DNA from: Anaerolineales bacterium
GTDB taxonomy: Bacteria > Chloroflexota > Anaerolineae > Anaerolineales > E44-bin32
Assembly (NCBI GenBank): GCA_035693825.1
Contig: DASSGB010000232.1
Location: forward strand, 4,199 to 68,198
Length of the DNA: 64,000 nucleotides
Direction of reading: 5' to 3'
Every line of letters begins with the position of its first letter. Within the stretch, counting starts at the first letter, position 1. A program made the position numbers and the translations under genes. This document shows positions 6,942-58,943 of the stretch, piece after piece. The notes below the pieces were generated by a model. It ran no database searches, was not told the DNA's origin, and saw only the letters and a list, made by a program, of their open reading frames with translations.

Positions 6942-7575
6942 GCTGGCCGCTTCGAGCCAACTGCGCCTCGCCGGACTGGACGAAGTCGGCCGGGGTGCGC
7001 TGGCCGGCCCGCTGGTGGCAGCGGCCGTCATCCTGCCTCTCGAGCACCGCGGCCTGCGCCGCGTCCTGGACGGCGTGCGCGACTCGAAACAGATGACCGA
7101 CGGCCAGCGCAGGCGGTGGGCCGACCGCCTGCGCCAGGTGGCCCTGGATCACGGACTCGGCCTGGCCACTGCGGCCGAGGTCGATGCCATCGGGCCCCTG
7201 GCCGGGACGTTGCTGGCGATGGAACGCGCGCTCGAGGCCCTGAGTCTTCATCCGGGCCATCTGCTGTTGGACCACGTCGCCCTGCCCAACGTCGCCGTGG
7301 CCCAGACCTCGGTGACGCATGGAGATGCAAGCGTGCTCTCCATCGCCTGTGCCTCGGTGCTGGCCAAGGTATGGCGCGACGACCTGATGCTGATGTATGA
7401 GCGCACGTTCCCGGGCTACGGCTTCGGCCACCACAAGGGTTACGGAACGCCCGAGCATCTCCAGGCCCTGGCGCGGCTGGGCCCCTGCCCCCTTCACCGC
7501 CTCTCGTTCCGCGCCACCGCGGCCGGCACCGATGCCGAATGGATTTCGGCGCCGGCCGACGCAAGCATCATCTGA
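6895..7575 (+). CDS. rnhB: Ribonuclease HII
   Basis: GLDEVGRGALAGPLVAAAV motif, then ...DSKQ...HKGYGT. The first in-frame ATG is at 6895 and overlaps the GT2 gene by 47 nt. The longer listed ORF (6301) is an upstream extension. Confidence 0.85.
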   Translation: MRGPGTHRPSLALERRLAASSQLRLAGLDEVGRGALAGPLVAAAVILPLEHRGLRRVLDGVRDSKQMTDGQRRRWADRLRQVALDHGLGLATAAEVDAIGPLAGTLLAMERALEALSLHPGHLLLDHVALPNVAVAQTSVTHGDASVLSIACASVLAKVWRDDLMLMYERTFPGYGFGHHKGYGTPEHLQALARLGPCPLHRLSFRATAAGTDAEWISAPADASII

Positions 7576-7610
7576 CCTCCGCCCACAGCCCGTTCCCCGG
7601 CTGCGCAAGC

Positions 7611-7648
7611 CCCAAGCGCGCGGGCCGGCTCGCGCGTCCGCGCTTGGG
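7611..7648. terminator. Hairpin between convergent rnhB and the kinase gene
   Basis: CCCAAGCGCG...CGCGCTTGGG forms a 10-bp stem. There is no clear U-tract. Confidence 0.35.
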
Positions 7649-7670
7649 TGGCGCCTTGCGCCGCGCGCCG

Positions 7671-10600: not shown

Positions 10601-11003
10601 CTCGAAACGGAGCCCGCTGCTCGAACACCGCTGCCCGCGCCGGCCAGGTCCGGTAATCCCGGATGTTCAAGGGTTGGCCGGTTTCGGCCACGGTGCCTGC
10701 CGCTCCCTCGCCGAAGTTGAGCACGGTGCCCACGGCGGAGACCGGCGTGCCCAGGCTGACCACGCAGCGCACCTGGCGGGTCTCGGGCACCACCAGGTAC
10801 ATCCCGCCTCCCTCGCCCTGAATCAGATCTACGGCGTTGCGGACGATCGATTGGAAAAGCGACTCGAGGTCCGGCTGGAGAACGGCTTCTTCGGTGACGC
10901 GGCGCACGGCCTCCAAGGCCTCCGGGCGGGCGCCCGGAGATGGCGCGCCCCCTTCGGGGCGGCCGCGCTTGCGCCGGCTTCCATCGAGTCGGGCCGGGGT
11001 CAT
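7671..11003 (-). CDS. Cytoplasmic sensor histidine kinase with about five GAF domains
   Basis: Five repeated GAF-like blocks, then HisKA (FVADVSHELRTPLTNI) and HATPase_c (GGAIRI...DTGLGIP...GTGLGLAI). No TM segments. No adjacent response regulator. Confidence 0.9.
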   Translation of the reverse strand: MTPARLDGSRRKRGRPEGGAPSPGARPEALEAVRRVTEEAVLQPDLESLFQSIVRNAVDLIQGEGGGMYLVVPETRQVRCVVSLGTPVSAVGTVLNFGEGAAGTVAETGQPLNIRDYRTWPARAAVFEQRAPFRAVISAPMVWQGRVTGILHVLRFRSESAFNDADLRLLTVFANQAAVVLENARLLEAAERRFRQLSLLHGITRAGMALTELQPLVQEMADRMASLIEADACYLTLWDEGHRTVLPAAAFGTFRDTYPAMGPEPGEQTLTESVLKVGHPLAIDDVSATPYVSQSLSQRFLVRSALGLPLVVGETRVGAALLTFERPHAFTPEEINLCEQAAGQVALAIARVRALEAERRRTAELEGIRRASLRLTSSLELRPVLESVLEEALKLARAKDAHIFMYDGEKLAFGAAYWDGEFHPAPFSEPRPHGLTYSVARTGQRIIVADASTDPMFQDSPWSGTILGIPILAAGRVRGVMTMAFGRPTDLDQDELRALELLADQTAIALENARLFETIDTERRRLRLLFDITRELSASVDLTEILERAVRLTTANLDAEWGTAYLLDSQSGRLRLTATAGDLGMDVDSLDRILGMRTGRGLEGWVVAHRQSALVREVLQDERWLHLRALNHGPGSAITAPILTGQEILGVMTVLRSEVFQQEHLLLLEAVGWQVGLALANARRYQEVTRRLAERAALQNVAQTVNRRLEMEALLDEVVRQVSDVLGYPVVEIFLIEDDVLVLRAAKDTMAIGEKRVPIKRGVIGRAVRTNRPAYVPDVRQDPDYVVGVPTTVAEIAVPLYKEDLVVGVLNVETPERGRLTEEDLHLLTLLADQVSVALENAALYDRLRRNMAELEQTVSDRTAELAKALEQAREADRLKTQFVADVSHELRTPLTNIRLYLELVDRGRPEKFANYMETLNRETERLVSLIEDLLAVSRLDAGTAVPQPEPIDLNRLALGLVEDRRRLMHQKSLSLSYEPMAGLPVVMADERMLAQVLANLMTNAMNYTPPGGAIRISTDVAQDADGSWVRLSVADTGLGIPDDEKPNLFSRFFRGSASRLMNTSGTGLGLAICREILDRHGGRITFTSRTGEGTTFTIWLKTTEATPSA

Positions 11004-14922: not shown

Positions 14923-16341
14923 CTACGTCCCGCGGCTGGTCACCGAGGCACTGGGATGCACAACGACTTTGTCGCCATGGGCCAGTTTGGCCTGCAGCTC
15001 GCTCTTGTCGGCCTGGTCGATCAGTTCCTCCAGAGTCGCGGCCACATCCGGAAAGACCGATCCCCCCATGCTCACCGTGATCGACAGCCGCTCGCCGCTC
15101 TCCAGCGTGATGCCGGCCTCGGCCACGTTCTTGCGGAGTTTCTCGCCGACCCCCTCCAGCTGACCCGGCGCGCAACCCGGCAGCACCACCGCGAACTCGT
15201 CCCCCCCGTAGCGCGCCACCCAGTCGGTCTCGCGAGTCGACAGCCGCAAGCCCTCGACCACGCGCTTCAACAAGGCGTCCCCCGCGAGGTGCCCGTGCTT
15301 GTCGTTGACCTCTTTCAGATTGTCGACGTCCACGATCAGCAGTCCGACCGAATAGCCCAGCCGCTGGGCGCGGGCCAGCTCGGCCCGCAAGTTCTGGTTG
15401 AAGAAGGCGCGATTGAAGGCACCGGTCAGATCGTCGATCGTCGCCTGGCGCTGGACCTGGTCGAACGTCTGGGAATTGGCGATGGCCAGGGCCGCCACCT
15501 GAGCCAACGCCACCAGGAAGTCGAGATCCGATTCACGGAACTGTTCCGGCTGGCCGCTGAGCAACAGAGCTCCCGTCACTCGCCCGCCCAGCTCCAGAGG
15601 CGCGCACAAAGCGCTCTCGTCTTCCTCGGGCGTCCCCTGCACTTGCATCGGGCGCGGATCCTGCGCGGTGTGATCGATCTTCAAAGGGACACCACGCGAG
15701 ACCACCCAGCCTGTCACTCCCTGGCCGACTCGCGGGCGCTGGCGCATGAGCTCCGCGGCGAAATCACCGGCCGAGGCCAGCGGCCGGAGCGTTTCCCCAT
15801 TCGGCTCCAGCAGAAAGATGGTGCAGGTGGTCGCCCGGAGGAGTTTCTGAGCGCGTTCGACGATCTTGCCCAGCGTGCGACGAAGGTCGAGCTGCGTCAG
15901 GAGCTCGCGCTGCACCTGAAGGAGCGTCGCCTGCTCCATCGTGCGCCGGCTGAGTTGCTCGGCCACGGCCAGGTGCTGGGAGACATCCCGCGCCGAACAG
16001 TCCATCCCCACGGTGCGGCCTTTGTCATCCCGAACCGGGATGGCAAACATCTCCACCCACACCGGCTCGCCGGACGCAGCCACCATCTGCAGCACCAGCG
16101 TGACGGAGGGCGCTCCCTCGTCACGGATCCGGGTGACGGCCGTTTGCAGGTCCGTCCAACCGTTGGAATGAAACAGGCTGGGCAGGTACTCCGGGCGCAG
16201 CAGGAGGTCGCCCGGCGCGCGCCCGGTGAGGCGCTCGAAGCCGGGGCTGACGAACGTCAGCCCCCGAACGAAGTCCCAACGGAAGACGGCGTCGGGGGAA
16301 AGGTCGGCCAGACGTTGGTAGTCGGGAACGGAGCGGACCAT
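14923..16341 (-). CDS. PAS-GAF-GGDEF diguanylate cyclase
   Basis: GGDEF core RYGGDEFAVVLPG preceded by GAF and PAS-like blocks. I prefer the ATG at 16341; the TTG at 16437 is the alternative. Confidence 0.85.
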   Translation of the reverse strand: MVRSVPDYQRLADLSPDAVFRWDFVRGLTFVSPGFERLTGRAPGDLLLRPEYLPSLFHSNGWTDLQTAVTRIRDEGAPSVTLVLQMVAASGEPVWVEMFAIPVRDDKGRTVGMDCSARDVSQHLAVAEQLSRRTMEQATLLQVQRELLTQLDLRRTLGKIVERAQKLLRATTCTIFLLEPNGETLRPLASAGDFAAELMRQRPRVGQGVTGWVVSRGVPLKIDHTAQDPRPMQVQGTPEEDESALCAPLELGGRVTGALLLSGQPEQFRESDLDFLVALAQVAALAIANSQTFDQVQRQATIDDLTGAFNRAFFNQNLRAELARAQRLGYSVGLLIVDVDNLKEVNDKHGHLAGDALLKRVVEGLRLSTRETDWVARYGGDEFAVVLPGCAPGQLEGVGEKLRKNVAEAGITLESGERLSITVSMGGSVFPDVAATLEELIDQADKSELQAKLAHGDKVVVHPSASVTSRGT

Positions 16342-16447
16342 GCACGACCATTCGGACGGCCAGGCGATTCCCCGGTCCCCCGCGGGGCGGCCACCCGCAT
16401 GCCGGCAAGTATACGGTCTAGTGGACGGAGTACGCAATGGAACGATG

Positions 16448-19732: not shown

Positions 19733-20500
19733 ATGACGCGCCGCTTGACTCCGGCGAACCTCATTTTCGGTCTGCTGTCCCTGGCGGGGCTGGTAGCGTT
19801 CGCCTATCCGTTTTGGGCCCCGGCCGGTCTGGACCCAAGCCAGATGCGTCCCGCGTTGTTTCTCTTCAGCGGATCGCTGGCGATGATCCTGGTCGCGATG
19901 CTGGCCGAGGCACAAGAAGGCTTGACGGCGCACACCATCGCCATGCTGGGTGCGCTGGTGGGCCTCAACACCGCGCTGCGCATGATGGACAACCTCGTGC
20001 CGCTTCCCGGCGGTTTCTCACCGGTCTTCCTTCTGATCGCCTTGGTGGGCTATGTCTTCGGCGCACGTCTGGGCTTCCTGATGGGCGCCCTCACACTCTT
20101 GATCTCTGATCCTCTTAGCCCGGGAGGCCTCGGGCCGTGGACGCCCTACCAGATGCTGGCCGCCGGCTGGGTAGGGATGGGCGCGGCCTTTCTGCCCAAA
20201 CGCGCCGGCGCGCTGGGTCTGGCTGTGTACGCCGGCCTGTGGGGCTGGCTCTTCGGCGTCCTGACCAATCTCTACTACTGGCCCTACGCGCTCGGCGCGC
20301 CGGACATCAGCTGGCAGCCGGGCCTGGGATGGGGAGAGATACTGGCGCGCTACGGCCGCTACTACCTGGTCACGTCGCTGGCCTGGGACACGATGCGAGC
20401 CATCGGGAACGTCGTCCTCCTGGGCGCCCTCGGCCCGTCGCTGATCAAGGTCCTCGAGCGATTCCGACGGCGGGCGTATGTCGCCTGGGAACCTGCGTGA
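19733..20500 (+). CDS. Polytopic membrane protein, tentatively ECF-transporter S-component-like
   Basis: 255 aa with 6-7 TM helices. The Gly/Ala-rich helices resemble annotated ECF S components. This is a weak call based on recognition only. Confidence 0.4.
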   Translation: MTRRLTPANLIFGLLSLAGLVAFAYPFWAPAGLDPSQMRPALFLFSGSLAMILVAMLAEAQEGLTAHTIAMLGALVGLNTALRMMDNLVPLPGGFSPVFLLIALVGYVFGARLGFLMGALTLLISDPLSPGGLGPWTPYQMLAAGWVGMGAAFLPKRAGALGLAVYAGLWGWLFGVLTNLYYWPYALGAPDISWQPGLGWGEILARYGRYYLVTSLAWDTMRAIGNVVLLGALGPSLIKVLERFRRRAYVAWEPA

Positions 20501-21824
20501 ACGCGGCCGGATGCCTGACATGCGAATGAGACGCTCGCCTCGTCGCTGGGTCATCGTGGCCGCGGCCATCGTACTGAGCCTCGTCCTCGGTGCCTGGGTA
20601 TACAACCTGCCGGCCGTCCAGGAGCGAATCGGCTGGCGAGTTTCCGAGGCGCGCGCCGCCCTGTGGTATGCCCTCTTCCCGCCGGAGGAATCGGTGTTCA
20701 CTCCGGATCCAACACTGGCGGCCATGGTCCGGCAGACCCTCGGGGCGTTAACCCCGACCCGCACGATCACGCCCACGCGCGGGCCGACTTCCCTTCCCAC
20801 CACCACGCCCTCACCCACCATCGTGCCGACTCCTCTTCCGGAGCGCGTGGCCCTCAGCGGAACCCGTCACGAGTACCAGCAATACAACAACTGCGGCCCG
20901 GCCACACTGGGCATGGGACTCTCCTTCTGGGGATGGACCGGCGATCAACGCCCGATCGCGGCCTTCACCAAGCCCAACCCGCGCGACAAGAACGTCATGC
21001 CTTATGAGATGGAAGCCTTCGTCGAGAGCGAGACCGAATGGCTGGCGGTCGTGCGCGTGGGCGGAAACCTGGACCGACTGAGGTCCTTCCTGGCGGCCGG
21101 CTTCCCGGTCATCGTCGAAAAAGGATTCGAACTCGAAGGTGCAGCATTCGACGGGTGGATGGGACACTACGAACTGATGACGGGCTACGACGATGCCCGC
21201 GGCCGTGTCACCGCCCAGGACTCCTACATCGGCTCGGATCTGCCGGTGAGCTACGAGGAACTCGAGGCCAATTGGCGGGCCTTCAACTACACCTACATCG
21301 TCATCTATCCCCCAGACCGCGAAGACCAGGTGCTGGCCCTGCTCGGCCCGGATGCCGACGAGAAGGCCAACATCGAGGCCGCCGCCCAAAAGGCCTCGGA
21401 CGAGATCTTCGCCCTGACCGGCCGCGATCAGTTGTTCGCCTGGTTCAATCGCGGCACCAACCTGGTGGACATGCAGGACTACGCCGGGGCGGCGGCGGCC
21501 TACGACGAAGCCTTCCGCATCGACGCCGAGTTGGCCATCCTCGATCCCGAACACCGGCCGTGGCGCATCCTGTGGTATCAGACGGGCCCGTACTGGGCTT
21601 ACTTCTACTCCGGCCGCTACTACGACGTCATCAACCTCGCCACGCAGACTCTGTCCAACATGAGCGAGCCGATCCTGGAGGAGAGCTATTACTGGCGCGG
21701 CCTGGCGCGCGAGGCCATCGGCGACGTCGCCGGGGCCATTGAAGATCTTCGGACCAGCCTGATCTATCACCCCGGTTTCGAGCCGGCTCTGTTCCATCTG
21801 AACCGCCTGGGCGTAGATGCCTGA
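20478..21824 (+). CDS. Membrane-anchored peptidase C39-like domain protein with TPR repeats
   Basis: YQQYNNCGPATLGMGLSFWG matches the C39-like catalytic-Cys region, and the C-terminus is TPR-like. The start may instead be the ATG at 20511, after the previous stop. Confidence 0.7.
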   Translation: MSPGNLRERGRMPDMRMRRSPRRWVIVAAAIVLSLVLGAWVYNLPAVQERIGWRVSEARAALWYALFPPEESVFTPDPTLAAMVRQTLGALTPTRTITPTRGPTSLPTTTPSPTIVPTPLPERVALSGTRHEYQQYNNCGPATLGMGLSFWGWTGDQRPIAAFTKPNPRDKNVMPYEMEAFVESETEWLAVVRVGGNLDRLRSFLAAGFPVIVEKGFELEGAAFDGWMGHYELMTGYDDARGRVTAQDSYIGSDLPVSYEELEANWRAFNYTYIVIYPPDREDQVLALLGPDADEKANIEAAAQKASDEIFALTGRDQLFAWFNRGTNLVDMQDYAGAAAAYDEAFRIDAELAILDPEHRPWRILWYQTGPYWAYFYSGRYYDVINLATQTLSNMSEPILEESYYWRGLAREAIGDVAGAIEDLRTSLIYHPGFEPALFHLNRLGVDA

Positions 21825-23394
21825 GTCCGCGCGCCCGAAGGCCGCGCTCACCGTCCTGCGAGCCTGGTCGCCCGTCGCCCGTGCCTCGCTCCTGATCGCG
21901 GGCCTGTTCGCCATCGACAAGCCGCTCGATCTGCTGCGGCAGATCATCATCGGCCGGCAGTTCGGTGTGGGCCCCGAGCTGGACGCGTTCAACGCCGCCA
22001 ACAATCTCCCCGACCTCCTGCGGGCGCTGATCACCGGCGGCGCGCTGTCGTTGGCTCTGATCCCCGTCCTGTCGGAAGCACTCGAGCGCAGCGGTCGCCC
22101 GGCGTTGTGGTCGTTGTTCAGCCGCATCGCCAATCTGGCCTTCGTCGTCACCGGCGTCCTGGCGGTCGTGGTCGGGTTGCTGGCCGAGCCGATCGTTCGC
22201 TCGCAGTGGGGCATCGCCCCCGGGTTCGCGCCCGAGGTCCAAGACCTGGTGATCGAGTTGATGCGCCTCAACCTCGCCGCGCTGTTGCTGTTCTCGGTCA
22301 GCGGCTTGGTGACCTCCGGCCTGCAGGCCAATCAGCATTTCTTCCTGCCGGCTTTGGCCCCGGTGGTGTACGACCTGGGCCAGATCGGCGGCGCGCTCGT
22401 GCTCGCCCCCGGCCCCGACGATCTCGCCATCGCCGGGCTGCGCTTCCCGGGGTTGGGACTCGGCGTTCACGGCCTGGTTTACGGCGTCATCATCGGCGCC
22501 GCCCTGCACCTGGCCGTGCAGCTGCCGGGCCTGGTGCGGCATCACTTTCGCTGGTCTCCATCCCTCGACCTTCGGCATCCCGGGGTCCGACAGGTGCTGA
22601 GGCTGATGGGACCGCGCCTCGTGACCATCGGCGCGTTTCAGCTCATGTTTGTCATTCAGGACAATCTGGGCTCACGCCTTCCCAGCGGCGCGGTGACGGC
22701 CCTGACGTACGGCTGGCTGATCATGCAGTTTCCGGAGACTCTCATCGGCACCGCTCTGGGGACAGCCCTGCTCCCGACGCTCTCGGAACAATTCGCCCGC
22801 GGCGATTCATCGGCCTTCGGCGCGAGTGTCGAACGCGGCCTGCGTGTCCTGCTCGCGTTGACGCTGCCTTCGGCGGTCCTGCTCGCGCTTGCGGTTCGAC
22901 CTCTGGTCGCGGCCGCGTTCGCCTTCGATGACGCGGGCACGAGCCTGGTGGCGGCCACCACGCAGGGCTTCCTAGTGGGATTGGTGGGCCATGCCTGGCT
23001 GGAAGTGCTGGCGCGCGCCTTCTTCGCGCGCCAGAATGCCCGGCCTCCGCTTGTGGCGCGGCTGGCTAATCTGGCGGTGTTCCTGGCCGCAGGCGCGGCC
23101 CTTTTCCGGCCGCTGGGAGCACTGGGGATCGCCGTCAGCAACAGCCTGGGCTTCACGGTCGAGGCGGCCGTTCTCTACTTGATTCTCCGACGCCCTCGGC
23201 CCGAGATCCGCGGCGCGTGGTCGTGCCTGCCGCGCGCCATCGCCGGATCGCTCCTCAGCGGCGCGGCGGCCTACGCCGCCATGAGCTGGCTCCCCCTTCC
23301 TGCGCTCCTGTCCACCGCCATCGGCCTCGCCATCGGCGGCGCGATCGCAGTCCTATTCATCCTGCCCGAATTGCGCGAATTGAAACGGCTGTAA
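21817..23394 (+). CDS. murJ: Lipid II flippase MurJ
   Basis: 525 aa with 14 TM helices. MurJ/MviN-like N-terminus (FGVGPELDAFNAANNLPDLL). Overlaps the upstream gene by 8 nt. Confidence 0.85.
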   Translation: MPESARPKAALTVLRAWSPVARASLLIAGLFAIDKPLDLLRQIIIGRQFGVGPELDAFNAANNLPDLLRALITGGALSLALIPVLSEALERSGRPALWSLFSRIANLAFVVTGVLAVVVGLLAEPIVRSQWGIAPGFAPEVQDLVIELMRLNLAALLLFSVSGLVTSGLQANQHFFLPALAPVVYDLGQIGGALVLAPGPDDLAIAGLRFPGLGLGVHGLVYGVIIGAALHLAVQLPGLVRHHFRWSPSLDLRHPGVRQVLRLMGPRLVTIGAFQLMFVIQDNLGSRLPSGAVTALTYGWLIMQFPETLIGTALGTALLPTLSEQFARGDSSAFGASVERGLRVLLALTLPSAVLLALAVRPLVAAAFAFDDAGTSLVAATTQGFLVGLVGHAWLEVLARAFFARQNARPPLVARLANLAVFLAAGAALFRPLGALGIAVSNSLGFTVEAAVLYLILRRPRPEIRGAWSCLPRAIAGSLLSGAAAYAAMSWLPLPALLSTAIGLAIGGAIAVLFILPELRELKRL

Positions 23395-40920: not shown

Positions 40921-43008
40921 TCACGCCTCGCTGGACAGCGGCAGGCTGAAGGAGAAGGTCGAGCCCTTCCCCGGATCACTCTCGACCCAAATCCGTCCCC
41001 CATGGGCCTCAACGGCCAGGCGGCAGAAGGCCAGGCCCAGGCCGAGGCCTTTGGCGTTGCCTTCCTGATTGGCCCGGGCAAACTTCTCGAAGATGTTCTT
41101 CTGCTCGCTGGCCGGAATCCCCGGCCCGTTGTCGGTGACGCTCACCACGAGGTCGCCGGCCCGGGCGTGGGCCGCCACGCCGATCTGCCCGCCGCTGCGC
41201 GTGTACTTGATGGCGTTTTCCAGCAGGTTGATCAGCACCCGCCGGATCATGTCGACGTCCATCTCGACCGCCGGCAGCTCGGCTTTGCCCAGCCCGAACT
41301 GCAGCAGGTGGCCCCTGGCCTCCGCCACGGGATGGACTTCCTCGACCGCCTCGGCGATGAGGCCGCTGATGGCGGCCGGCGTCTTGTGCAGAACCGCCTG
41401 CCCCGATTCCAGCTGACCCAGATCGAGCAGCGACTCGACCAGCCGCGACAGCCGCCGGCTGGAGCGCAGGGCGATGGACAGGATCGACTGCATGGCCTCA
41501 TCGTCCTGCGGCAGCGTTGCCTGGAGCATCTCCAGGCTCGAGATGATGTTGCCCAGCGGCGAACGCAAATCGTGGAAGATCATCGAGGTCAGATCCAGCC
41601 GCAGCTCGTCCAGCGCCAGCCGCTCGGAGATGTCGCGCAGAATCCACTGCAGCGTACCCTGCGGCCCGATGTCGATCCGCTTGACGTGAATCTCGATCGG
41701 CAGCTGCCGCCCGTCGCGGTGCATCGCTCGTCCGGTGTAATCGTCGGTTTCGCCCTCCTGCAGGCTGCCGAGCTCCGGGGGGTGTTGGTCGGGATCCGGT
41801 TGGTGCAGCTTCAACACCGATTCACCGACCAGGTCATCATGCGAGGTGCCCAGGAACTCCTGGGCCCTCCGATTGGCATCACTGACCTTTCCCTGCAGGT
41901 CGGTGATGAGAATCGGGTCGATGCTGTCTTCGAACAGGCTGGCGTAACGCTGCCGCGCCGCCTGGGTTTCGGCGAACATCTGGGAGTTGGTCACGGCGGC
42001 CGCGGCTTGATCGGCGAAGGCCGCCACCAGCTCGGCCTGCGTCGCCCCGTAGGTGCCGACCCGGCGGCTGTCGACGTTGAGCACGCCCACGGCCCGATCG
42101 CGCACGATCAACGGCGCGCCGATCCAGCCGCGGATCAGGGCCGACTCGGGCACTTCGTCCGAGCGCACCCAGCCGCGCTCTTCCTGCACGTTGCCGATGA
42201 CCAGCGTTTGGCGCGTGGTCAGCACGCGGCCGGTCAGCATATCGGGGTTCACCGGCAAGGTCAGGCCGATGATGGCCCGGTTGTTGGCGAAGCCGCGCGC
42301 CGCCACCAGGCGCAGGACGTCCCCATCGCGCAGCAGAATGCTGGCGCTGTCGAAGTCCACCACGCGTTCGAGCTGCTCCAGGACCGTGGGAAAGACCAAG
42401 GCCGGGTCGAGGGTTGAGCTGATCGATCGGGCGACTTCCTGGAGCGTCGAGGCAAACTTGCGCCGCTCTTGCTCGGCGCTGAACAGCCGGGCATTCTCGA
42501 CGGCGATGCCGGCCTGGTCGGCGATGGCGCTCAGCAGCTCCAGGTCGTCTTCATTGAAGTGGCCCGCCTCGGGATGGACGAGCGTCAATACGCCCACGAC
42601 GCGGGTGCGGGTCATCAACGGGACGGAGATGACCGAACGCGACTCGCCCTCCGCTTCGTGCTCGGGTCGCCGCAGCCAGCGCGGATCGTCGGCCGTTCGC
42701 CGCACCAGGGCCGGCTCGCGGTGCTCGACCACCCAGCCCGCCAGGCCGCGCTCGAAGGTGTCGGTCAGCTGCTCGGCGGTGTGGTCGTGGACTTTGCCTT
42801 CGTAGGCCAGCGCGCCCTCGAGCACTTCGCCCTGGTTGTTGAGCACCAGAATGCTGCCGCTCGGAGCCCCGACGGTTTCCAGGGTCAGTTGAAGAATGTG
42901 CTGAAGCAGTTGGCGGAGATCGAGTTGCGCCGCAAGCTCGCGGCCGATGCGATACAGCAGCTCGAGCGAGGAACGCGTTCGTTCACGGGCCGGCCCGTGG
43001 GCGGTCAC
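40921..43008 (-). CDS. Cytoplasmic GAF-GAF-PAS sensor histidine kinase
   Basis: Two or three GAF blocks, PAS (IDPILITDLQGKVSDAN), HisKA (FHDLRSPLGNI) and HATPase_c (DNGPGIP...GLGLGLAF). No response regulator is adjacent. Confidence 0.9.
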   Translation of the reverse strand: MTAHGPARERTRSSLELLYRIGRELAAQLDLRQLLQHILQLTLETVGAPSGSILVLNNQGEVLEGALAYEGKVHDHTAEQLTDTFERGLAGWVVEHREPALVRRTADDPRWLRRPEHEAEGESRSVISVPLMTRTRVVGVLTLVHPEAGHFNEDDLELLSAIADQAGIAVENARLFSAEQERRKFASTLQEVARSISSTLDPALVFPTVLEQLERVVDFDSASILLRDGDVLRLVAARGFANNRAIIGLTLPVNPDMLTGRVLTTRQTLVIGNVQEERGWVRSDEVPESALIRGWIGAPLIVRDRAVGVLNVDSRRVGTYGATQAELVAAFADQAAAAVTNSQMFAETQAARQRYASLFEDSIDPILITDLQGKVSDANRRAQEFLGTSHDDLVGESVLKLHQPDPDQHPPELGSLQEGETDDYTGRAMHRDGRQLPIEIHVKRIDIGPQGTLQWILRDISERLALDELRLDLTSMIFHDLRSPLGNIISSLEMLQATLPQDDEAMQSILSIALRSSRRLSRLVESLLDLGQLESGQAVLHKTPAAISGLIAEAVEEVHPVAEARGHLLQFGLGKAELPAVEMDVDMIRRVLINLLENAIKYTRSGGQIGVAAHARAGDLVVSVTDNGPGIPASEQKNIFEKFARANQEGNAKGLGLGLAFCRLAVEAHGGRIWVESDPGKGSTFSFSLPLSSEA

Positions 43009-52627: not shown

Positions 52628-53449
52628 CTACGATCGTCTCGACTTCAGGGCCGACTCGAGCTCGGCGAAAGGGACGCGCGAGGTCATGTCGAGGCTCAGC
52701 GGGGTGACGGACACTTTGCGTTCGACGCGCAGGGCATGTGCGTCCGACCCGGGCTCGAGAGAACTGGCCTCCACCGAAACGCGGTAACCCATCAGTCCCG
52801 GTTCGCTCAGCTCGGTGCGGCCGGAGGCCACCGGCTCGTAGTAGCGCATGCGTGACAGCCGCGTGAGCCTCCACGGTGTCTCGGGCGTGGCCCCGATCGG
52901 CACATCGACCTTCAAGACATCCACATCCTGCAGCCGGCCGGTCTTCATCAGCGTCGCGCCGAATTGGCGGGCGAAGAAGGCCGCCGCCGAGAAATCCACT
53001 TCTTCCGAATGCGTCAGGTGATAGCGGCTCTCGGCTTCCTGGGAGACCGCCAGCGCCGGGATTCCGGCCGCGGCGCCTTCCAGCGCAGCGCCGATCGTGC
53101 CCGAAATGGTCACGCTGGTGGAGACGTTCTCGCCGTAGTTGATCCCAGACACGACCAGATCCGGTTTGCGCGGCACGAGCTCGAACAGCGCGTGCTGGAC
53201 GGCCTGCGCCGGCGAGCCTCCCACGGCGTACACCTTCCACGACTTCCCGCCGACCACGACGTCTTGTTCGTGAATGGCGCCGTCGGAACTCGGAGGCATG
53301 CTTCGACCGCTGCCGGATTGCTGCTCGCGCGGGGCTACCACGAACACGAAGCCGATCTCGGACAGCGACTCGGCCGCGGCCCACAATCCGGGCGAACGGA
53401 TGCCGTCGTCGTTGGTCAACAGGATGAGAGGTCTGTCGTCCGGGATCAT
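52628..53449 (-). CDS. surE: 5'/3'-nucleotidase SurE
   Basis: ILLTNDDGIRSPG motif, then ...SGINYGEN. ATG at 53449 (an upstream TTG is listed). Confidence 0.9.
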   Translation of the reverse strand: MIPDDRPLILLTNDDGIRSPGLWAAAESLSEIGFVFVVAPREQQSGSGRSMPPSSDGAIHEQDVVVGGKSWKVYAVGGSPAQAVQHALFELVPRKPDLVVSGINYGENVSTSVTISGTIGAALEGAAAGIPALAVSQEAESRYHLTHSEEVDFSAAAFFARQFGATLMKTGRLQDVDVLKVDVPIGATPETPWRLTRLSRMRYYEPVASGRTELSEPGLMGYRVSVEASSLEPGSDAHALRVERKVSVTPLSLDMTSRVPFAELESALKSRRS

Positions 53450-53538
53450 GGTCGAGACAAATCGTACCAAGCCGCCACCCGCCGGTCAACGCAGCCGGCG
53501 CAAGGATCGTGCCAGGCTGGACGAAGGCTGCTCAACCT

Positions 53539-54174
53539 CTAGCTTTGTCCGCGCGCTTCGGCGGCGAGCTGCTCGAAGAAAGCCGTCAGCACGCGTTCCC
53601 GGCGGCGCGCCCATCGGCGCGCCGGGCGCGTATGAAGCCTGCCGGCCACGTGCCGCAGCTTGAAGAGGTACTCGTGATACGCGCTGTGGGGTTCGTTGGG
53701 TGCCGATCGGTTTTGGCGGAGAAAGACCTCCGATGGCTCGGCAAAGATCGGCTCACCCGCCTGCATGGCGTAGGCGATCGTCCGCGCCACGCCGAAAGCC
53801 CCCACCACATCCAGTTTGTCGGCGTCGAAGAGGATCTCGGCCTCGAGAGTCGCCGGAGCTTCGCGGCTGCGGTAGCGATGAGAACGGATGCAGTGTTCCA
53901 CCGCCCGTATTCTCGGCTCCGGCCATGCTTCGTTTTCCAGCACCTGACGGGCGAACTCGGCCGAGGCCTGCTCATGATGGCTGCGGGTCGAACCTTCGCC
54001 CGGGGCCGCGCCGGAAGCATCGTGCAGGAGAGCCGCGGCGCGCAGGACGTCGAGGTCAGCGCGCAGCTCGTTCCCCAGTCTCTCGGCCAGGGCCAGAACG
54101 CGCAGCACGTGATCGAAGCCGTGGACAGTATCGTTGTGCGGATACCACGTCCGCGCCTGCTCTACCGTCGGCAT
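53539..54174 (-). CDS. HD-domain phosphohydrolase
   Basis: Contains HGFDHVLRV...AALLHDA. ATG at 54174 with a GGAGGG SD. Confidence 0.8.
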   Translation of the reverse strand: MPTVEQARTWYPHNDTVHGFDHVLRVLALAERLGNELRADLDVLRAAALLHDASGAAPGEGSTRSHHEQASAEFARQVLENEAWPEPRIRAVEHCIRSHRYRSREAPATLEAEILFDADKLDVVGAFGVARTIAYAMQAGEPIFAEPSEVFLRQNRSAPNEPHSAYHEYLFKLRHVAGRLHTRPARRWARRRERVLTAFFEQLAAEARGQS

Positions 54175-54223: not shown

Positions 54224-54847
54224 TCACGCGGGACCACGTCGCATCGTCCACAACTCAATCGGCGTTCCGGGAAATTCGAGGTGGCTGAGCACCTGAAAAC
54301 CGTGCTTGGCGTAGAAAGCGAGGTTATCTTCCTTCACGGTCTCCAGGTAGCAGGCGGACTTCTCGGCATCGGCAACGGCCAGGATCGGCGCCAGGAGACG
54401 ACTGCCGATTCCTTGCCCTTGGCGGCCCGGCTCGACGCCCAGGGCCTGGAGATACCAGAAGCGACCGGTCATGAGCCTGCGACGCTCGCCGTCGAGAATC
54501 TCCACGGCTCGAAACAGGAGGCGGCGAGGCTTTTCCGGAGCACGAAGAAACGAGATCGGCAGCGCGAAGCCTGTACGCAGCGCGCGCGCAAAGGTGAGAT
54601 CGTCCCGGCCGGGAGCGGCCCAACAGGCGACTCCCTCCAGCCCGGCTGTCGCGTAGACCTTGCCCAGGATCCGGCAGGTGTGGATGAGGGCCCTCCACAG
54701 ATTCCGGGTAAAGCGAAGCCGGCGCTGCTCCTCGGGAAAGAGGAAGGAGTAGAAAGGATCGTCCGCGAAGGCGCGCGTGAGCACATCCGCGGCCCGCCCT
54801 TCGGCGGAAGGCGAAAGTTCGACGACGGACGCGGCCGGCTTGCTCAT
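54224..54847 (-). CDS. GNAT family N-acetyltransferase
   Basis: QGQGIGSRLLAPIL...FYAKHGF core. ATGA overlap with the upstream ATPase stop. The long listed ORF (to 55744) runs out of frame relative to the ATPase gene and is rejected. Confidence 0.8.
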   Translation of the reverse strand: MSKPAASVVELSPSAEGRAADVLTRAFADDPFYSFLFPEEQRRLRFTRNLWRALIHTCRILGKVYATAGLEGVACWAAPGRDDLTFARALRTGFALPISFLRAPEKPRRLLFRAVEILDGERRRLMTGRFWYLQALGVEPGRQGQGIGSRLLAPILAVADAEKSACYLETVKEDNLAFYAKHGFQVLSHLEFPGTPIELWTMRRGPA

Positions 54848-56439
54848 CCTCGGTCTGAACGGCCGATGTCCTCCGCGCATGCCGGCCAGGGTCTCCCGGT
54901 CAGCGTCTGCAAGGCGGTGCGGAAACCGGCCTGTGCGAAAAGCGTTTCCCGCGTGGGGCCCGCGTCGGCAATGCGGCCGTCCTGCAAGACGAGAATCCGG
55001 CCGGTGTGAGCCGCCAGGAATTCGACGTCGTGGCTGGCGACGATCACCGCCGTGCCGTCCTTCGACCAGTTCCGCATCAGCTCGCCCAGCTCGCGCTGCG
55101 CCATGGGATCCATCCCGAGCGTCGGCTCGTCCAGGAGCAGAACTTCCGGGTGAGTCACCATGACCGCGGCCAGCGCGACGCGCTGCCGCTGGCCCGCCGA
55201 GAGATCGCGCGGGTAGGCGCCTCGCACGGCCGTCAGCCCGAGCGCCTCCAGCATCCAGGAGGGGTCCACCGGAGGCCGGTCCCGCAGTCCGTGGCTGCGC
55301 AAGGTGAAATCCAACTCGGCTTCCACGGAGTCGGCAAACAGCATGGAACTCGGCGTCTGAGACACGAAGCCGATGTGTCGTGCTCGCGTCGCGACCGGAA
55401 CCTGCGACAGCGAAGATCCATCCAGGAAAACCTCGCCCGAGGCCGGCTCCTCCAGTCCCATGAGACAGCGCAGGAGAGTCGTCTTGCCAGATCCGTTGCG
55501 CCCCACCAGCCCCAGGATTTCTCCAGGCGCGACCTCCAGGTCGACGCCCATGAGGACGGGCCGGTGGTTGTAGGAGAACTCGAGGCCGCGCGTCGAGAGT
55601 CGCGTCGGATCGGACGCGGCTCGCGGGCGCGGGGCGGGATCGGGCAGCGCGTGCAGGGCTTGCGCCAGCGCGGAATGGTCGTCCGTGTCCTCCAGGCCGA
55701 GCCGGCGGGCGGCCTCCTGCAGCGGGTCGGCATACGGCATACACTTCGTCACCGCCGACGGCCCGTCACAGGCGACCATCCTTCCAGGCGCCTCCAGATA
55801 AGCCATCCGGTTGACGCTCTCCATCCAGCGGCCAAGCCGATGCTCGGCGAGCACCAGGGTCAGCCCGTGGTCTTCGGTGAGATCGTCAAGCCATTCCACC
55901 AGCGCCTGCGCCGCCATCGGATCGAGCTCGGTCGACGGCTCGTCGAGCACCAGCATCGCCGGCCGGCGCGCCAGCCCCGCGGCGATGGCCACGCGCGCTT
56001 GCTCGCCGGCTGAAAGCCGGTCGAGCGCACGCGACATCAGGGGCCCGAGGTCGAGGCGTTCGATGACGTCGGCCACTCGCCGGCGGATTTCGGCCCCGGC
56101 GAGACCGGCCACTTCGAGGCCAAAGGCGATTTCGTCCTCGACCGAGGCGGAGAGGAATCTCGCCTGCGGTTCCTGAAAGACCATGCCCACCTGGGCCGCC
56201 AGCTGCATCGGTCCGGCGCGGTGCACGTCCAGCCCGCCGATCCGCGCTCGACCGCGGAATCGGCCGCCATAGAGATGAGGCACCAGGCCGTTGAAGACGC
56301 GAAGCAAGGTCGACTTGCCGGCGCCGGACAGCCCGCTCACCAGCAGCCGATCGCCAGGCTCGAGATGCAGATCGATGGAATCGAGCGCCGGCAGCCTCGA
56401 TTCGGGATACCAGTAGGAAACGCCCTCGAGGTCAACCAT
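54844..56439 (-). CDS. ECF/cobalt-type ABC ATPase, fused duplicate (EcfA-EcfA')
   Basis: Two ABC cassettes (GLSGAGKST...LSAGEQARV...LVLDEP; GRNGSGKTT...LSAGQRQRV...LLLDEP). Confidence 0.9.
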   Translation of the reverse strand: MVDLEGVSYWYPESRLPALDSIDLHLEPGDRLLVSGLSGAGKSTLLRVFNGLVPHLYGGRFRGRARIGGLDVHRAGPMQLAAQVGMVFQEPQARFLSASVEDEIAFGLEVAGLAGAEIRRRVADVIERLDLGPLMSRALDRLSAGEQARVAIAAGLARRPAMLVLDEPSTELDPMAAQALVEWLDDLTEDHGLTLVLAEHRLGRWMESVNRMAYLEAPGRMVACDGPSAVTKCMPYADPLQEAARRLGLEDTDDHSALAQALHALPDPAPRPRAASDPTRLSTRGLEFSYNHRPVLMGVDLEVAPGEILGLVGRNGSGKTTLLRCLMGLEEPASGEVFLDGSSLSQVPVATRARHIGFVSQTPSSMLFADSVEAELDFTLRSHGLRDRPPVDPSWMLEALGLTAVRGAYPRDLSAGQRQRVALAAVMVTHPEVLLLDEPTLGMDPMAQRELGELMRNWSKDGTAVIVASHDVEFLAAHTGRILVLQDGRIADAGPTRETLFAQAGFRTALQTLTGRPWPACAEDIGRSDRG

Positions 56440-57442
56440 GGCGGGCGCCGATCAGGGGTGCGGCCAGAAGCGCGACGATCAACACAGGCGCGGGGTGCAG
56501 CGACGGCAGGCTGAGCTGAGGGTAGGGATAGTAGGTCAGGAGCGCCGGCCAGCGAGCCATGACCGTCAGCAGCAGAATGCCCGCCGCGCCGGACAGCCCG
56601 GCGATGATCCTGTCGTTCGCTCTCCATACTTCGGGCCGGTATCGATGGCTCTCCCTCTGCATGCTCCGACTCAAGAACACAACCGACAGCGCCATCAGAC
56701 CCAAGCCCAGCGACAGAAGGCCCGGCTGCGCCGCCCAGACTCCGAGTCCGAGCGCCAAAACCACCCAGCCGAGAATCATGAGCCACCGCCTGGCGCGGCG
56801 CAGACGCTGCGTCCCCCAGCCGCGGGCCACGAGGCCTTCGGCCTGGGCCATGGCGCGCTCCAGGCTCAGGATCACCAGCGGCTCGACCGAAGCGCGGGCT
56901 TCACGGATCCCTTGCGAAGCCTGGCCTCGGATCCGGCGCGCCTCCACCAGATCCATGTAGCTCCGACGGGCCAGCGGGGCGAAGGTGAGGCCGAGCATCC
57001 CTACCACACCCAACGGGTACAGGCCGGGAGGCGTCCGCCGCAACAGATCGGCCGGAGTCACGACGGCTGAGAAGAGCACCATGATCAGCAGCACGGCCCC
57101 GATCTGCAGGCCGGCCACGACGCCGAACGCGACCGCCTCCAGCGTGTATGGACCTCCGATCCAGCGGATGGGCAATTCGAGGAGGACCGTCGCGCCGGCG
57201 CGGCTGAAGATGAGGTTGATCAGGGTTGACGTCGCCAGCAGCGAGGCCACCAGCAGGAAGGTCGAGAGCGACGGCGGCTCGCGCGTGACACGCCAGCGCA
57301 CGACGGCCGCCAGCGCCCCCAGAAGCATGAGGTACCACGGGTTTCGCACGAGCAGCGCCGTCGACACCGCGCACACGGTCCACACCAACCAGGCTGTCGG
57401 ATGGATGCGCCGCCGTGTGCCAGAATTCGCGTTGGAGTTCAC
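56432..57442 (-). CDS. ECF transporter T component (CbiQ/EcfT family)
   Basis: Polytopic protein with two coupling-helix Ala-Arg-Gly motifs (EARRIRG, LVARGWG). GTG start. Overlaps the ATPase gene by 8 nt. Confidence 0.7.
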   Translation of the reverse strand: MNSNANSGTRRRIHPTAWLVWTVCAVSTALLVRNPWYLMLLGALAAVVRWRVTREPPSLSTFLLVASLLATSTLINLIFSRAGATVLLELPIRWIGGPYTLEAVAFGVVAGLQIGAVLLIMVLFSAVVTPADLLRRTPPGLYPLGVVGMLGLTFAPLARRSYMDLVEARRIRGQASQGIREARASVEPLVILSLERAMAQAEGLVARGWGTQRLRRARRWLMILGWVVLALGLGVWAAQPGLLSLGLGLMALSVVFLSRSMQRESHRYRPEVWRANDRIIAGLSGAAGILLLTVMARWPALLTYYPYPQLSLPSLHPAPVLIVALLAAPLIGARHG

Positions 57443-57526: not shown

Positions 57527-58570
57527 CTAACCTTCGGCCCTACGCGATCTGCCAAGCAGCCCGGCGGCAGCCAGGACCGCTAGCAGCACGACCAGTGTCG
57601 CCATCAGGATCGGGGTCGTGGATCCGCCGGTCGCGGCGAAACCTGCCGGCAGTCGCGGCACGTCGGTCAGATCCGCCCCCGCCAGGGCCGGGATGGCCTG
57701 GACCGTCGCCAGGAAGTTGTCCCCGGGCGTGGCGGCGTTGAACGCCAGCGCTCCGCTCGGCTGCTGCAGCGCCTGCAGGGCGCGTTCCGGATGGCCCCAT
57801 TCGCTCAGGTCTTGCCCGGAGGCCATCAGCGCCTGGATCACCACCGCCGTCGAATTGGCATCGGTGTCCTCACCGAAGGCGCTCGGCTTCTGGTAGGTCC
57901 AGCCCCCATCCGCGTTCTGCACCAGGCGGAAGTAGTCAATCGAGGGTGCGGCCTCCGATCCGGCACCGGCCGCCAGCAGCGCCTGAACGACGAGAGCCGT
58001 GGTGTTGCTGTCACCGGCGTCCGGGGTCATGTCGCCCGCAAACGAGTAGCTTCCATCCGGCAACCGCGTGGCCACCAGACCCGTCAGCGCGCCTTCGGGC
58101 AGCGCTTCACCTGCGGCGCGCAGGGCCAACACGGACAGCCCGCTGTCGTAGGGGCCGCCTCCGAACAAACCCGTCTCGGAATTGAAACCCGCCAGCACCG
58201 CGTCCACCAGATTCGCGCCGCCGAAGTCGCGCGGATCTTCGCCCGCGGCGACGGCGGCCAGGACCACCTTGGCCGCCAGGCCGGGCGTTTCGAGTTTGGT
58301 GGCCTGCGCCGTGAGGTACTGGATCGGCGAGGTGCCCTCGACGACCCACGTCGACGGATCCTCGCCGGCACTGGCGATGGCCACCACGGCGTCGGCCGTT
58401 GCGCCAGGATCACTGCCCTCACTGAACCCGGTCGAGAAGCCTCCGTCGGCCAGCTGCTCTGTTCGCAACCAGGCCAGCGCCGCGGCCGCGCCGTCCTGCG
58501 CCGCGGCGGGCAGCGGCGAGAGGATCCAACCGAAAAGCACAGATACAAGGATGAGCCGTCGAATCCACAT
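57527..58570 (-). CDS. Secreted, C-terminally membrane-anchored prenyltransferase/squalene-cyclase-repeat (alpha/alpha-toroid) protein
   Basis: Signal peptide (LSPLPAAAQD). Repeated QxxDGG(F/W)-type motifs (EQLADGGFS, RLPDGSYSF, VQNADGGWTY, QQPSGALAF). Terminal TM (ILMATLVVLLAVLAAAGLL). Confidence 0.75.
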   Translation of the reverse strand: MWIRRLILVSVLFGWILSPLPAAAQDGAAAALAWLRTEQLADGGFSTGFSEGSDPGATADAVVAIASAGEDPSTWVVEGTSPIQYLTAQATKLETPGLAAKVVLAAVAAGEDPRDFGGANLVDAVLAGFNSETGLFGGGPYDSGLSVLALRAAGEALPEGALTGLVATRLPDGSYSFAGDMTPDAGDSNTTALVVQALLAAGAGSEAAPSIDYFRLVQNADGGWTYQKPSAFGEDTDANSTAVVIQALMASGQDLSEWGHPERALQALQQPSGALAFNAATPGDNFLATVQAIPALAGADLTDVPRLPAGFAATGGSTTPILMATLVVLLAVLAAAGLLGRSRRAEG

Positions 58571-58602
58571 GATGGTTTGCTCCCTTAGAAGGTCAGGCTA
58601 CG

Positions 58603-58638
58603 GCCAGAAACACAACCTCCCCGTTCTGGCGGGGAGGC
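58603..58638 (-). terminator. Riboswitch expression-platform terminator
   Basis: The minus strand reads CCUCCCCG-CCAGAA-CGGGGAGG followed by UUGUGUUUCU. The upstream GGAGGCGGCGCC could act as an anti-terminator. Confidence 0.6.
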
Positions 58639-58905
58639 GCGAGGTACATAGGCGCCGCCTCCTTTCCGCGAAGGCATGTCAAGCGCCGGGCAGAGGCGGG
58701 TATCCTGGCTTGGATGCCGTCTGCCATCAGCCTTCCGCCATCAGCCGAAACCGCCCAAGCTGATAGCCGACAGCCGATAGCTGACAGCCTTCCCTACAGT
58801 TGCGGGACAGCGCCGGACTTCCGCGTGCGAGCCGCAGTCACCGGCTTCCCCTTCGTTGACCTTCGCATCCGGGCGAAGGCCACCTCTGCCCAGGGGTTAT
58901 CAGTT
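58616..58905 (-). promoter_or_regulatory. Cobalamin (B12) riboswitch
   Basis: The minus strand reads ...GGUGGCC...GAAGGGGAAGCCGGUGA...GGAAGUCCGGCGCUGUCCCGCAACUGUAGGGA...AAGCCAGGAUACCCGCC. These are the conserved GGGAAnnnGGUGA, GCUGUCCCGCAACUGUA and B12-box elements in the canonical order. Confidence 0.85.
58716..58788. repeat. Inverted heptamer arrays forming the riboswitch's variable hairpin
   Basis: GCCGTCT GCCATCA GCCTTCC GCCATCA GC - 13-nt loop - GCTGATA GCCGACA GCCGATA GCTGACA GC. The 30-nt arms pair with a few mismatches and G-U pairs. Confidence 0.85.
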
Positions 58906-58913
58906 GTGGGAGG

Positions 58914-58943
58914 AGTATAGGGCCTCAAGGTGGGCCGCGTCAA
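58914..58943 (-). promoter_or_regulatory. Promoter (TTGACG-18-TATACT) upstream of the riboswitch
   Basis: The minus strand reads GCATGCTTGACGCGGCCCACCTTGAGGCCCTATACT. Confidence 0.45.

Follow-up and report, generated by a model that had tools for sequence, protein, structure and literature searches.

A cobalamin riboswitch, a membrane-anchored toroid protein and a distant CbrT-family S component: a candidate split corrinoid importer in an Anaerolineales bacterium

What is a protein with terpene-cyclase-like repeats doing at the head of a vitamin B12-regulated transporter operon? The question is raised by a 64,000-nt stretch of an Anaerolineales bacterium genome (contig DASSGB010000232.1 of assembly GCA_035693825.1, positions 4,199 to 68,198; hereafter, the window), in which a cobalamin riboswitch on the minus strand precedes genes for a 347-aa toroid protein, here called TOR, and for the EcfT and EcfA parts of an energy-coupling factor (ECF) transporter. 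No substrate-capture (S) component is encoded among these genes, and the original prediction, made from the DNA sequence, was that TOR captures corrinoids outside the cell and may feed, or partly replace, the S component. Few microbes make B12 while many compete for it, and its capture by monoderm bacteria outside the Lactobacillales is poorly known. The reading that we favor, with reasonable but far from complete confidence, is a B12-repressed ECF corrinoid importer split over two loci, in which TOR is an extracytoplasmic accessory protein that feeds an unlinked CbrT-like S component and does not replace it. The features on which this reading depends are the following.

58943-58914, minus strand: sigma-70-like promoter, TTGACG-18-TATACT, matching 10 of 12 consensus positions
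58678-58902, minus strand: cobalamin riboswitch aptamer, RF00174, 71.9 bits against a gathering score of 31.5, E 1.9e-16, full model 1-189
58605-58638, minus strand: predicted expression platform, a terminator-like hairpin with a T-rich tail, followed by a Shine-Dalgarno sequence
57527-58570, minus strand: TOR, a 347-aa secreted alpha/alpha-toroid protein with a signal peptide and a C-terminal transmembrane anchor, from an AlphaFold2 model, sequence features and synteny
56432-57442, minus strand: EcfT-type T component, 336 aa, with a profile match to solved EcfT proteins, IRG and ARG motifs and a C-terminal extension of ~100 aa
54844-56439, minus strand: fused EcfA-EcfA' double ATPase (EcfAA'), 531 aa, with two ABC_tran domains, E 1e-55
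19733-20500, plus strand: CbrT-family ECF S component, 255 aa, from tblastn, Pfam and a profile match to 6fnp_A

The regulatory elements are those that had been anticipated. RF00174 is the sole Rfam family detected in the window, the match runs the full length of the model, and the B12 box AGCCAGGAUACCCGCC is aligned within it. The promoter lies where it had been placed, and promoter-like sites at this level of agreement with the consensus occur twice in the scanned region, against 0.4 expected from shuffled sequences. The proposed terminator is likewise present as a hairpin with GCCTCCCCG and CGGGGAGGT as its arms (9 pairs, 7 of them GC) and a T-tract at 58638-58615; it starts 40 nt past the aptamer, ahead of the Shine-Dalgarno sequence AAGGGAG and of the TOR ATG at 58570, and appears in both the minimum-free-energy and the centroid folds. 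No other terminator-like site was found between 52400 and 59200. The riboswitch thus possesses a predicted platform, in the form of this terminator, able to shut off the downstream gene.

The link between riboswitch, TOR and ECF genes extends well beyond this genome. Scanning one genome per species yielded 39 loci with TOR relatives, and Rfam was run on every one. Usable upstream DNA is available for 34 of them, in Chloroflexota and Clostridia alike, and in every one of the 34 RF00174 stands at the head of the operon; a further four of the 39 are cut by contig ends, and the relationship of L039 is doubtful (E 7e-4). The distance from the end of the aptamer to the estimated start of TOR is 112-227 nt in 26 Chloroflexota loci. 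This gap widens to 545 nt in L030 because another gene, encoding the beta-like protein described below, comes first, and L018 retains a plainly visible 5' half of the riboswitch, interrupted by a scaffold gap of 100 N. In six Clostridia loci, the riboswitch stands at the head of a larger operon. The T and EcfAA' genes follow wherever the contig extends far enough, so the supposed tie of the toroid family to B12 riboswitches and ECF T/A genes held in every informative locus. Two side observations come from the same scan: a SAM riboswitch was found in L039 (9209-9320), where a B12 riboswitch was not, and a group II intron domain match lies upstream in L011 (43-114).

These loci fall into three types. 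The reduced type (A), comprising the window and L001-L022, has TOR proteins 51-65% identical and the order riboswitch, TOR, T, EcfAA', then genes for an HD-domain protein and SurE; neither an S gene, in the operon or within 8 kb, nor a beta-like gene within 8 kb was found in the 22 related loci of this type. In the full type (B; L024-L030, with TOR identity of 36-44%), the riboswitch is followed by TOR, a SCO2322-like protein (PF28005), S (PF12822), T (CbiQ) and EcfAA', in that order. The Clostridia type (C; L031-L038, TOR 25-30% identical), from Syntrophomonadaceae and other Clostridia, runs from the riboswitch through a 928-aa protein combining toroid, Big_2, DUF4430 and SLH domains, a DUF4430 lipoprotein, T and EcfAA' to a toroid-SLH protein and S. 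The layout with no beta-like gene and an unlinked S gene is conserved, in the window and 22 Chloroflexota genomes, most of them labelled Anaerolineales or Anaerolineaceae. One full-type locus, L030 from the Chloroflexia, carries a tandem duplication (6792-9487) in the order beta-like, TOR, TOR, beta-like, followed by S, T and EcfAA', with a single riboswitch.

If the riboswitch operon encodes most of an importer, where is its S component? The original prediction that none is encoded in the operon stands, as there is neither room for an S gene nor a homologue of one between 52.6 and 58.6 kb; it did not anticipate that the window encodes one at a distance of ~38 kb. The gene, at 19733-20500, was hit in a tblastn search that used the S protein from the L024 operon (45% identity over 294 aa, E 8e-55). 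Its product scores 27.8 bits with PF07155, above the cutoff of 26.7, and the gene is named 'ECF transporter S component' by NCBI. Compared with the PDB at a limit of E 10, a profile of the S family matched a lone chain, 6fnp_A (E 8e-14); even at that permissive level, neither CbiM nor any S component for another vitamin came up. The structure 6FNP is the ECF-CbrT vitamin B12 transporter (PMC5997447), and as its EcfT chain was identified separately, CbrT must be the 182-aa chain named "membrane protein". Three other reduced-type genomes carry an S orthologue and the TOR operon on one contig, 37-39 kb apart. Judged by sequence, the window S is a member of the CbrT family, orthologous to the in-operon S of the related systems, and we infer that it is the partner of the riboswitch-controlled T/EcfAA' module. 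The original prediction had named a canonical S component encoded immediately outside the features it called as something that would weaken it, and this gene, although 38 kb away, weakens the idea of replacement in that way. With the same layout in three other genomes, the suggestion that the toroid partly replaces S is not supported, and an accessory protein that feeds S is the plausible form of the idea.

The surroundings of the S gene are also conserved. It is followed, with overlaps or short gaps, by a gene for a C39-like peptidase/TPR protein and by murJ, which encodes the lipid II flippase, in four of four genomes (window 19733-23394, plus strand; L040-L043), and the window and L040 also have, immediately upstream and in the opposite orientation, a gene for a LysM/SdrD_B protein.

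The AlphaFold2 model of TOR (mean predicted local distance difference test score, pLDDT, 91.3) consists of an N-terminal signal helix, a single alpha/alpha toroid and a C-terminal transmembrane helix (318-345), with hydrophobic segments at 6-24 and 321-339 of the sequence. Model and sequence therefore both bear out the proposed signal peptide and anchor and, with them, the extracytoplasmic placement of the toroid, whose body should face outward in a monoderm cell. The repeats were overcounted: instead of at least four QxxDGG(F/W) motifs, there are only two strict ones (Q39 and Q218), the remaining repeats being degenerate. A sequence scan found no Cys and no DxDD motif. The conserved face of the protein carries the stretches DGGFS, GDSNTTA, QNxDGGWTYQKPS and TDANSTA. 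Pfam SQHop_cyclase_N/C matched at E ~1e-3, under the gathering score, and PF01122 (Cobalamin_bind) gave no Pfam match. The nearest family model is NF053823 (SCO2321_fam), which TOR matches at E 5e-28 and 98 bits against a cutoff of 300, making it related to that family but outside it. The protein is 100% identical to a hypothetical protein of an Anaerolineales metagenome-assembled genome, and it belongs to a large family, with 559 cluster representatives (clusters at 50% identity) matching at E <= 1e-30 and with members labelled "prenyltransferase/squalene oxidase repeat protein" or "hypothetical" in the databases. In the literature searched, there are no experimentally characterised members, and searches for SCO2321, or for riboswitch, prenyltransferase, cobalamin and ECF transporter together, returned nothing relevant. 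Many relatives are 600-2000 aa long and combine two to four toroid domains with PKD or CWB2 cell-wall-binding domains; one multi-toroid relative has a sub-threshold PF01122 match (21.5 bits against a cutoff of 25).

The model was also compared with known structures using Foldseek. The best matches are the small single-domain squalene-hopene-cyclase-like proteins 8pak and 8paj (E ~6e-7, TM-score 0.61). Transcobalamin 2bb6 ranks seventh (E 2.8e-5, TM-score 0.56, root-mean-square deviation 4.6 A), with intrinsic factor at E ~1e-3, the value also of 2pmv and 3kq4, and sequence identity to transcobalamin-type structures is 14-18%. The assignment of TOR to the general fold class of the transcobalamin alpha domain thus survives, with the qualification that cyclase-like proteins match slightly better; the predicted fold is compatible with the alpha domain and not specific to it. 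Taken with the operon context, it leads us to regard TOR as an accessory protein with a putative role in binding corrinoid, analogous to the alpha domain of transcobalamin.

The order of TOR, EcfT, double EcfA and GNAT genes in the original prediction matches the annotated genes on the minus strand. A profile of the EcfT family matches the solved chains 4hzu_T, 4huq_T and 5d3m_D at E ~1e-12 over its first ~230 positions, and the sequence of 5d3m_D also occurs in 6fnp. Pfam CbiQ (PF02361) did not match the window EcfT even at E up to 1; the protein is 30-32% identical to its counterparts in L024 and L032, which do match CbiQ (E 5e-10 and E 4e-18, respectively). Two A-R-G coupling motifs had been described, of which the second is indeed ARG (206) while the first reads IRG (171), and R172-G173 and R207-G208 are invariant in the family. 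Homology and the two xRG motifs together mark the 336-aa protein as a predicted EcfT. The C-terminal block of ~100 aa (window 56432-56800) occurs in reduced, full and Clostridia types and is specific to this operon family; it adds about four hydrophobic segments and contains the conserved motif RYRPxxW...YYPYP, and one possibility is that it serves as a docking site for the transmembrane anchors of the accessory proteins. The EcfAA' gene, whose start overlaps the T gene by 8 nt, encodes the fused double ATPase that had been expected: its product exceeds the cutoff of the cbiO model TIGR01166 (264.6 bits against 211.8) and matches ECF_ATPase_1 and ECF_ATPase_2 (E 1.4e-85). It falls short of the equivalog cutoffs for EcfA1 and EcfA2, as is expected of a fusion protein.

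The relatives add a second half to the comparison with transcobalamin. The model of P0272, a SCO2322-like representative of 238 aa (alignment A6; pLDDT 82), has as its top 16 PDB matches only beta domains of transcobalamin, haptocorrin or intrinsic factor, or the DUF4430 protein 3u7z, and matches the isolated human beta domain 5np4 with a TM-score of 0.64 normalised to the target. The beta-like protein of the full operons matches SCO2322_fam (NF040672) at E 1.5e-4 and 22 bits, the cutoff being 85. Alignment of the SCO2322-like family with DUF4430 by hhalign gave a probability of 0.5%, so the tie to these domains comes from the predicted fold only. The SCO2322-like/PF28005 family is rich in Cys, with an invariant C..GC..C.FC.C..C.YW.Y pattern (L024 9011-9913; L025-L030; P0241-P0360). 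On the evidence of the model, the family is probably a disulfide-stabilised and previously unrecognised branch of the SLBB superfamily. Since a beta-like partner or DUF4430 stands beside the toroid in them, types B and C would encode both halves of transcobalamin, split or fused, by an ECF transporter.

For the window, these observations suggest the following course of events. When B12 is scarce, the riboswitch would permit read-through of the terminator, and TOR, EcfT and EcfAA' would be made. TOR would be exported by the Sec pathway and held on the outer face of the membrane by its C-terminal helix, where it would bind, or help to bind, corrinoid outside the cell and pass it to S. The induced T/EcfAA' module would dock with the CbrT-family S component encoded 38 kb away, and corrinoid would be imported at the expense of ATP. 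A Pfam survey of 20 further window genes revealed none for cobalamin biosynthesis or B12-dependent enzymes.

Several points weigh against this mechanism and limit our confidence in it. In both the window and the three other genomes, Rfam detected no riboswitch near the S gene, and since the gene sits instead in the conserved peptidase/MurJ neighborhood, we infer its pairing with the T/EcfAA' module from orthology only. Cyclase-like proteins outrank transcobalamin among the structural matches of TOR (6e-7 versus 3e-5), so fold alone cannot pinpoint B12 binding, and corrinoid binding is reported for no bacterial member of the TOR family. A beta-like gene (SCO2322 or DUF4430) was not found in the window by tblastn or a custom HMM, the best match having E 3.2, and among the best 120 of 181 beta-like homologues, none lies on a contig equal in length to the long contigs checked for reduced-type genomes. 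Work on intrinsic-factor fragments by Fedosov and colleagues reportedly found that isolated beta binds cobalamin far better than alpha. If the beta fragment carries most of the affinity, a TOR without beta may bind weakly on its own; it may need S as a counter-surface, or a partner encoded elsewhere in the genome. Finally, deletion of lsa1836-1840, the related operon of Lactobacillus sakei, lowered heme uptake and was not linked to B12 (bioRxiv 10.1101/864751).

A more specific version of the mechanism takes the lack of a beta partner at face value. In this Chloroflexota clade, mostly Anaerolineales, TOR might dock directly on the enlarged CbrT-like S or on the extended EcfT, so that corrinoid would have a soluble-type alpha domain on one side and a membrane protein on the other, and a constitutively encoded S would be recruited on demand by the B12-switched module. 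We consider such alpha-only capture unlikely as it stands; if true, it would be a minimal mode not seen in transcobalamin-type binders.

Among the alternatives to corrinoid capture by TOR, the one that survives best is that TOR is a B12-regulated surface protein that takes no part in binding corrinoid, serving as a scaffold or stabiliser of the ECF complex, as an envelope protein or as a binder of some other molecule, while S alone captures the vitamin. It would sit well with the missing beta partner in the window, with a fold nearest to terpene-cyclase-like proteins and with a superfamily that includes many multi-toroid PKD/CWB2 surface proteins of no obvious B12 link, and solitary CbrT binds B12 by itself (PMC5997447). 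It accounts poorly for the first position behind the riboswitch that TOR keeps across two phyla and for the repeated pairing or fusion of the toroid with transcobalamin-beta-like domains, which reconstitutes both halves of transcobalamin, and we think that there is perhaps a minor chance that it is right.

Less probable still is that the cargo is something other than a complete corrinoid, such as cobalt, a lower-ligand precursor or heme. Cobalt transporters are also found under B12 riboswitches, the ATPase scores best with cbiO-type models, and the heme phenotype in L. sakei points in the same direction; yet among solved proteins the S component matches CbrT only, the accessory proteins reproduce both transcobalamin domains, and for B12 to shut off a heme importer makes no evident sense. 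We regard a different cargo as improbable.

That TOR replaces S altogether and delivers corrinoid straight to EcfT/EcfAA', making an S-less importer, had some appeal given that S is absent from the operon and its 8-kb surroundings in 22 reduced-type loci and that EcfT carries its extra ~100-aa C-terminal block with several hydrophobic segments. This block is also found in relatives with an in-operon S, TOR has one transmembrane helix only, all solved ECF complexes translocate via an S component, and group II ECF transporters normally have no S gene next to their T/A module (PMC5997447). We reject the S-less importer, which is effectively excluded by the CbrT-family S component in the window and its conservation in related genomes. 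Least likely of all, and also rejected, is that TOR is a class II terpene cyclase or prenyltransferase acting on an isoprenoid: cyclases are its best PDB matches by sequence and fold, and the sub-cutoff SQHop_cyclase_N/C matches (E ~1e-3) point the same way, but a single toroid that lacks both DxDD and any Cys for a Zn site is not a plausible enzyme of either kind, and it is exported with a signal peptide and, in all the genomes examined, found in the company of a B12 riboswitch and an ECF transporter.

Behind the ATPase gene, three further genes follow on the same strand.

54224-54847, minus strand: GNAT acetyltransferase, whose ATG overlaps the ATPase stop codon as ATGA
53539-54174, minus strand: HD-domain phosphohydrolase, with its start taken as the Met at residue 29 of the open reading frame, where homologue alignments begin
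52628-53470, minus strand: SurE (5'/3'-nucleotidase)

The ATGA overlap agrees with the translational coupling of the GNAT gene in the original prediction. This gene, which sits between the ATPase and HD genes, is peculiar to the window, being absent from all 39 related loci. Of the 22 reduced-type loci, 17 have both the HD and SurE genes behind the ATPase gene and two have only HD there, while in the remaining three the contig or match ends before they would be reached; they do not follow the ATPase gene in full-type loci. A promoter-like site (53489-53461) lies immediately ahead of SurE, and it is uncertain whether HD and SurE belong to the riboswitch transcript, and are thus regulated by B12, or reflect mere synteny within the clade. 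Elsewhere in the window, three GAF-rich signalling proteins (a histidine kinase with five GAF domains, a PAS-GAF-GGDEF protein and a GAF-PAS histidine kinase), encoded at 7671-11003, 14923-16437 and 40921-43008, all on the minus strand, appear unrelated to the importer.

The comparative evidence presented here argues for a bacterial transcobalamin that works with ECF-CbrT and has the TOR family as its alpha half; the SCO2322/PF28005 family would be the beta half. If this is true, thousands of genes could be re-annotated, and there would be added support for the proposal, made in 2007, that the B12 carriers of animals are descended from surface binders of bacteria. The variant without a beta partner would then be a natural experiment on the contribution of each half.

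How much of this has precedent? Burroughs et al. (2007) described secreted bacterial alpha/alpha-toroid and transcobalamin-like SLBB proteins encoded with CbiO-like and CbiQ-like genes and predicted them to be B12 scavengers (PMC1796856). The window resembles these systems in having a secreted toroid protein with CbiQ-like and CbiO-like genes, and the Clostridia relatives L032-L038 have exactly the architecture described in 2007. It differs in that its TOR is toroid-only, and SLBB/DUF4430 was not found in its 64 kb, yet is present in L024-L038; the 2007 paper, for its part, did not include systematic riboswitch linkage, a CbrT-type S component or the Chloroflexota clade. Verplaetse et al. (2019) studied the lsa1836-1840 'ECF-like' operon of L. 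sakei, which encodes S, fused EcfAA', T and exported transcobalamin-beta-like and alpha-like proteins, the latter two proposed to scavenge a ligand and hand it to S; the phenotype of its deletion was reduced heme uptake (bioRxiv 10.1101/864751). As described, that operon contains both the beta-like gene and S, and a riboswitch is unmentioned in the paper, whereas the window has RF00174, no beta-like gene that we could find and an S gene 38 kb away. With the prediction of 2007, the L. sakei operon and ECF-CbrT all known, the general arrangement is not new, and the original prediction overstated its case in calling it undescribed (PMC1796856; bioRxiv 10.1101/864751). What we did not find described are the near-universal RF00174 control of toroid-ECF operons, the SCO2322/PF28005 family as the beta half and the conserved variant in the Chloroflexota clade that lacks beta and has S unlinked. 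TOR and the beta-like protein are also related to, and fall outside, the Actinobacteria families SCO2321 (NF053823) and SCO2322 (NF040672), both of which have no assigned function, and the consecutive locus numbers of these families suggest the same gene pairing.

The closest characterised transporter is ECF-CbrT of Lactobacillus delbrueckii, which imports cobalamin and cobinamide (Santos et al. 2018; PDB 6FNP; PMC5997447). Like it, the window has a CbrT-family S component, EcfT and EcfA-type ATPases. Unlike the window, L. delbrueckii shares its module among about eight S components (group II) and has no extracytoplasmic accessory protein. Its A and A' are separate proteins. In the window, by contrast, T/EcfAA' are under a B12 riboswitch, the ATPases are fused, EcfT is extended, the toroid gene comes first, and S is 255 aa long versus 182 aa in L. 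delbrueckii. A different parallel is offered by the BtuG-type surface lipoproteins that capture B12 in Bacteroides (Wexler et al. 2018; PMC6143338). The logic would be analogous, in that a cell-surface corrinoid binder is encoded together with a transporter, the recipient in the case of BtuG being the outer-membrane protein BtuB. BtuG loci, too, are under B12 riboswitch control, and the BtuG fold is a beta-propeller unrelated to the toroid. Finally, TOR resembles the eukaryotic carriers transcobalamin, intrinsic factor and haptocorrin (PF01122) in its extracellular location and, as modelled, in a toroid fold that matches their alpha domain; it differs from them in being membrane-anchored, in carrying no beta domain in its chain and in the proposed recipient of its corrinoid, an ECF transporter where theirs is an endocytic receptor.

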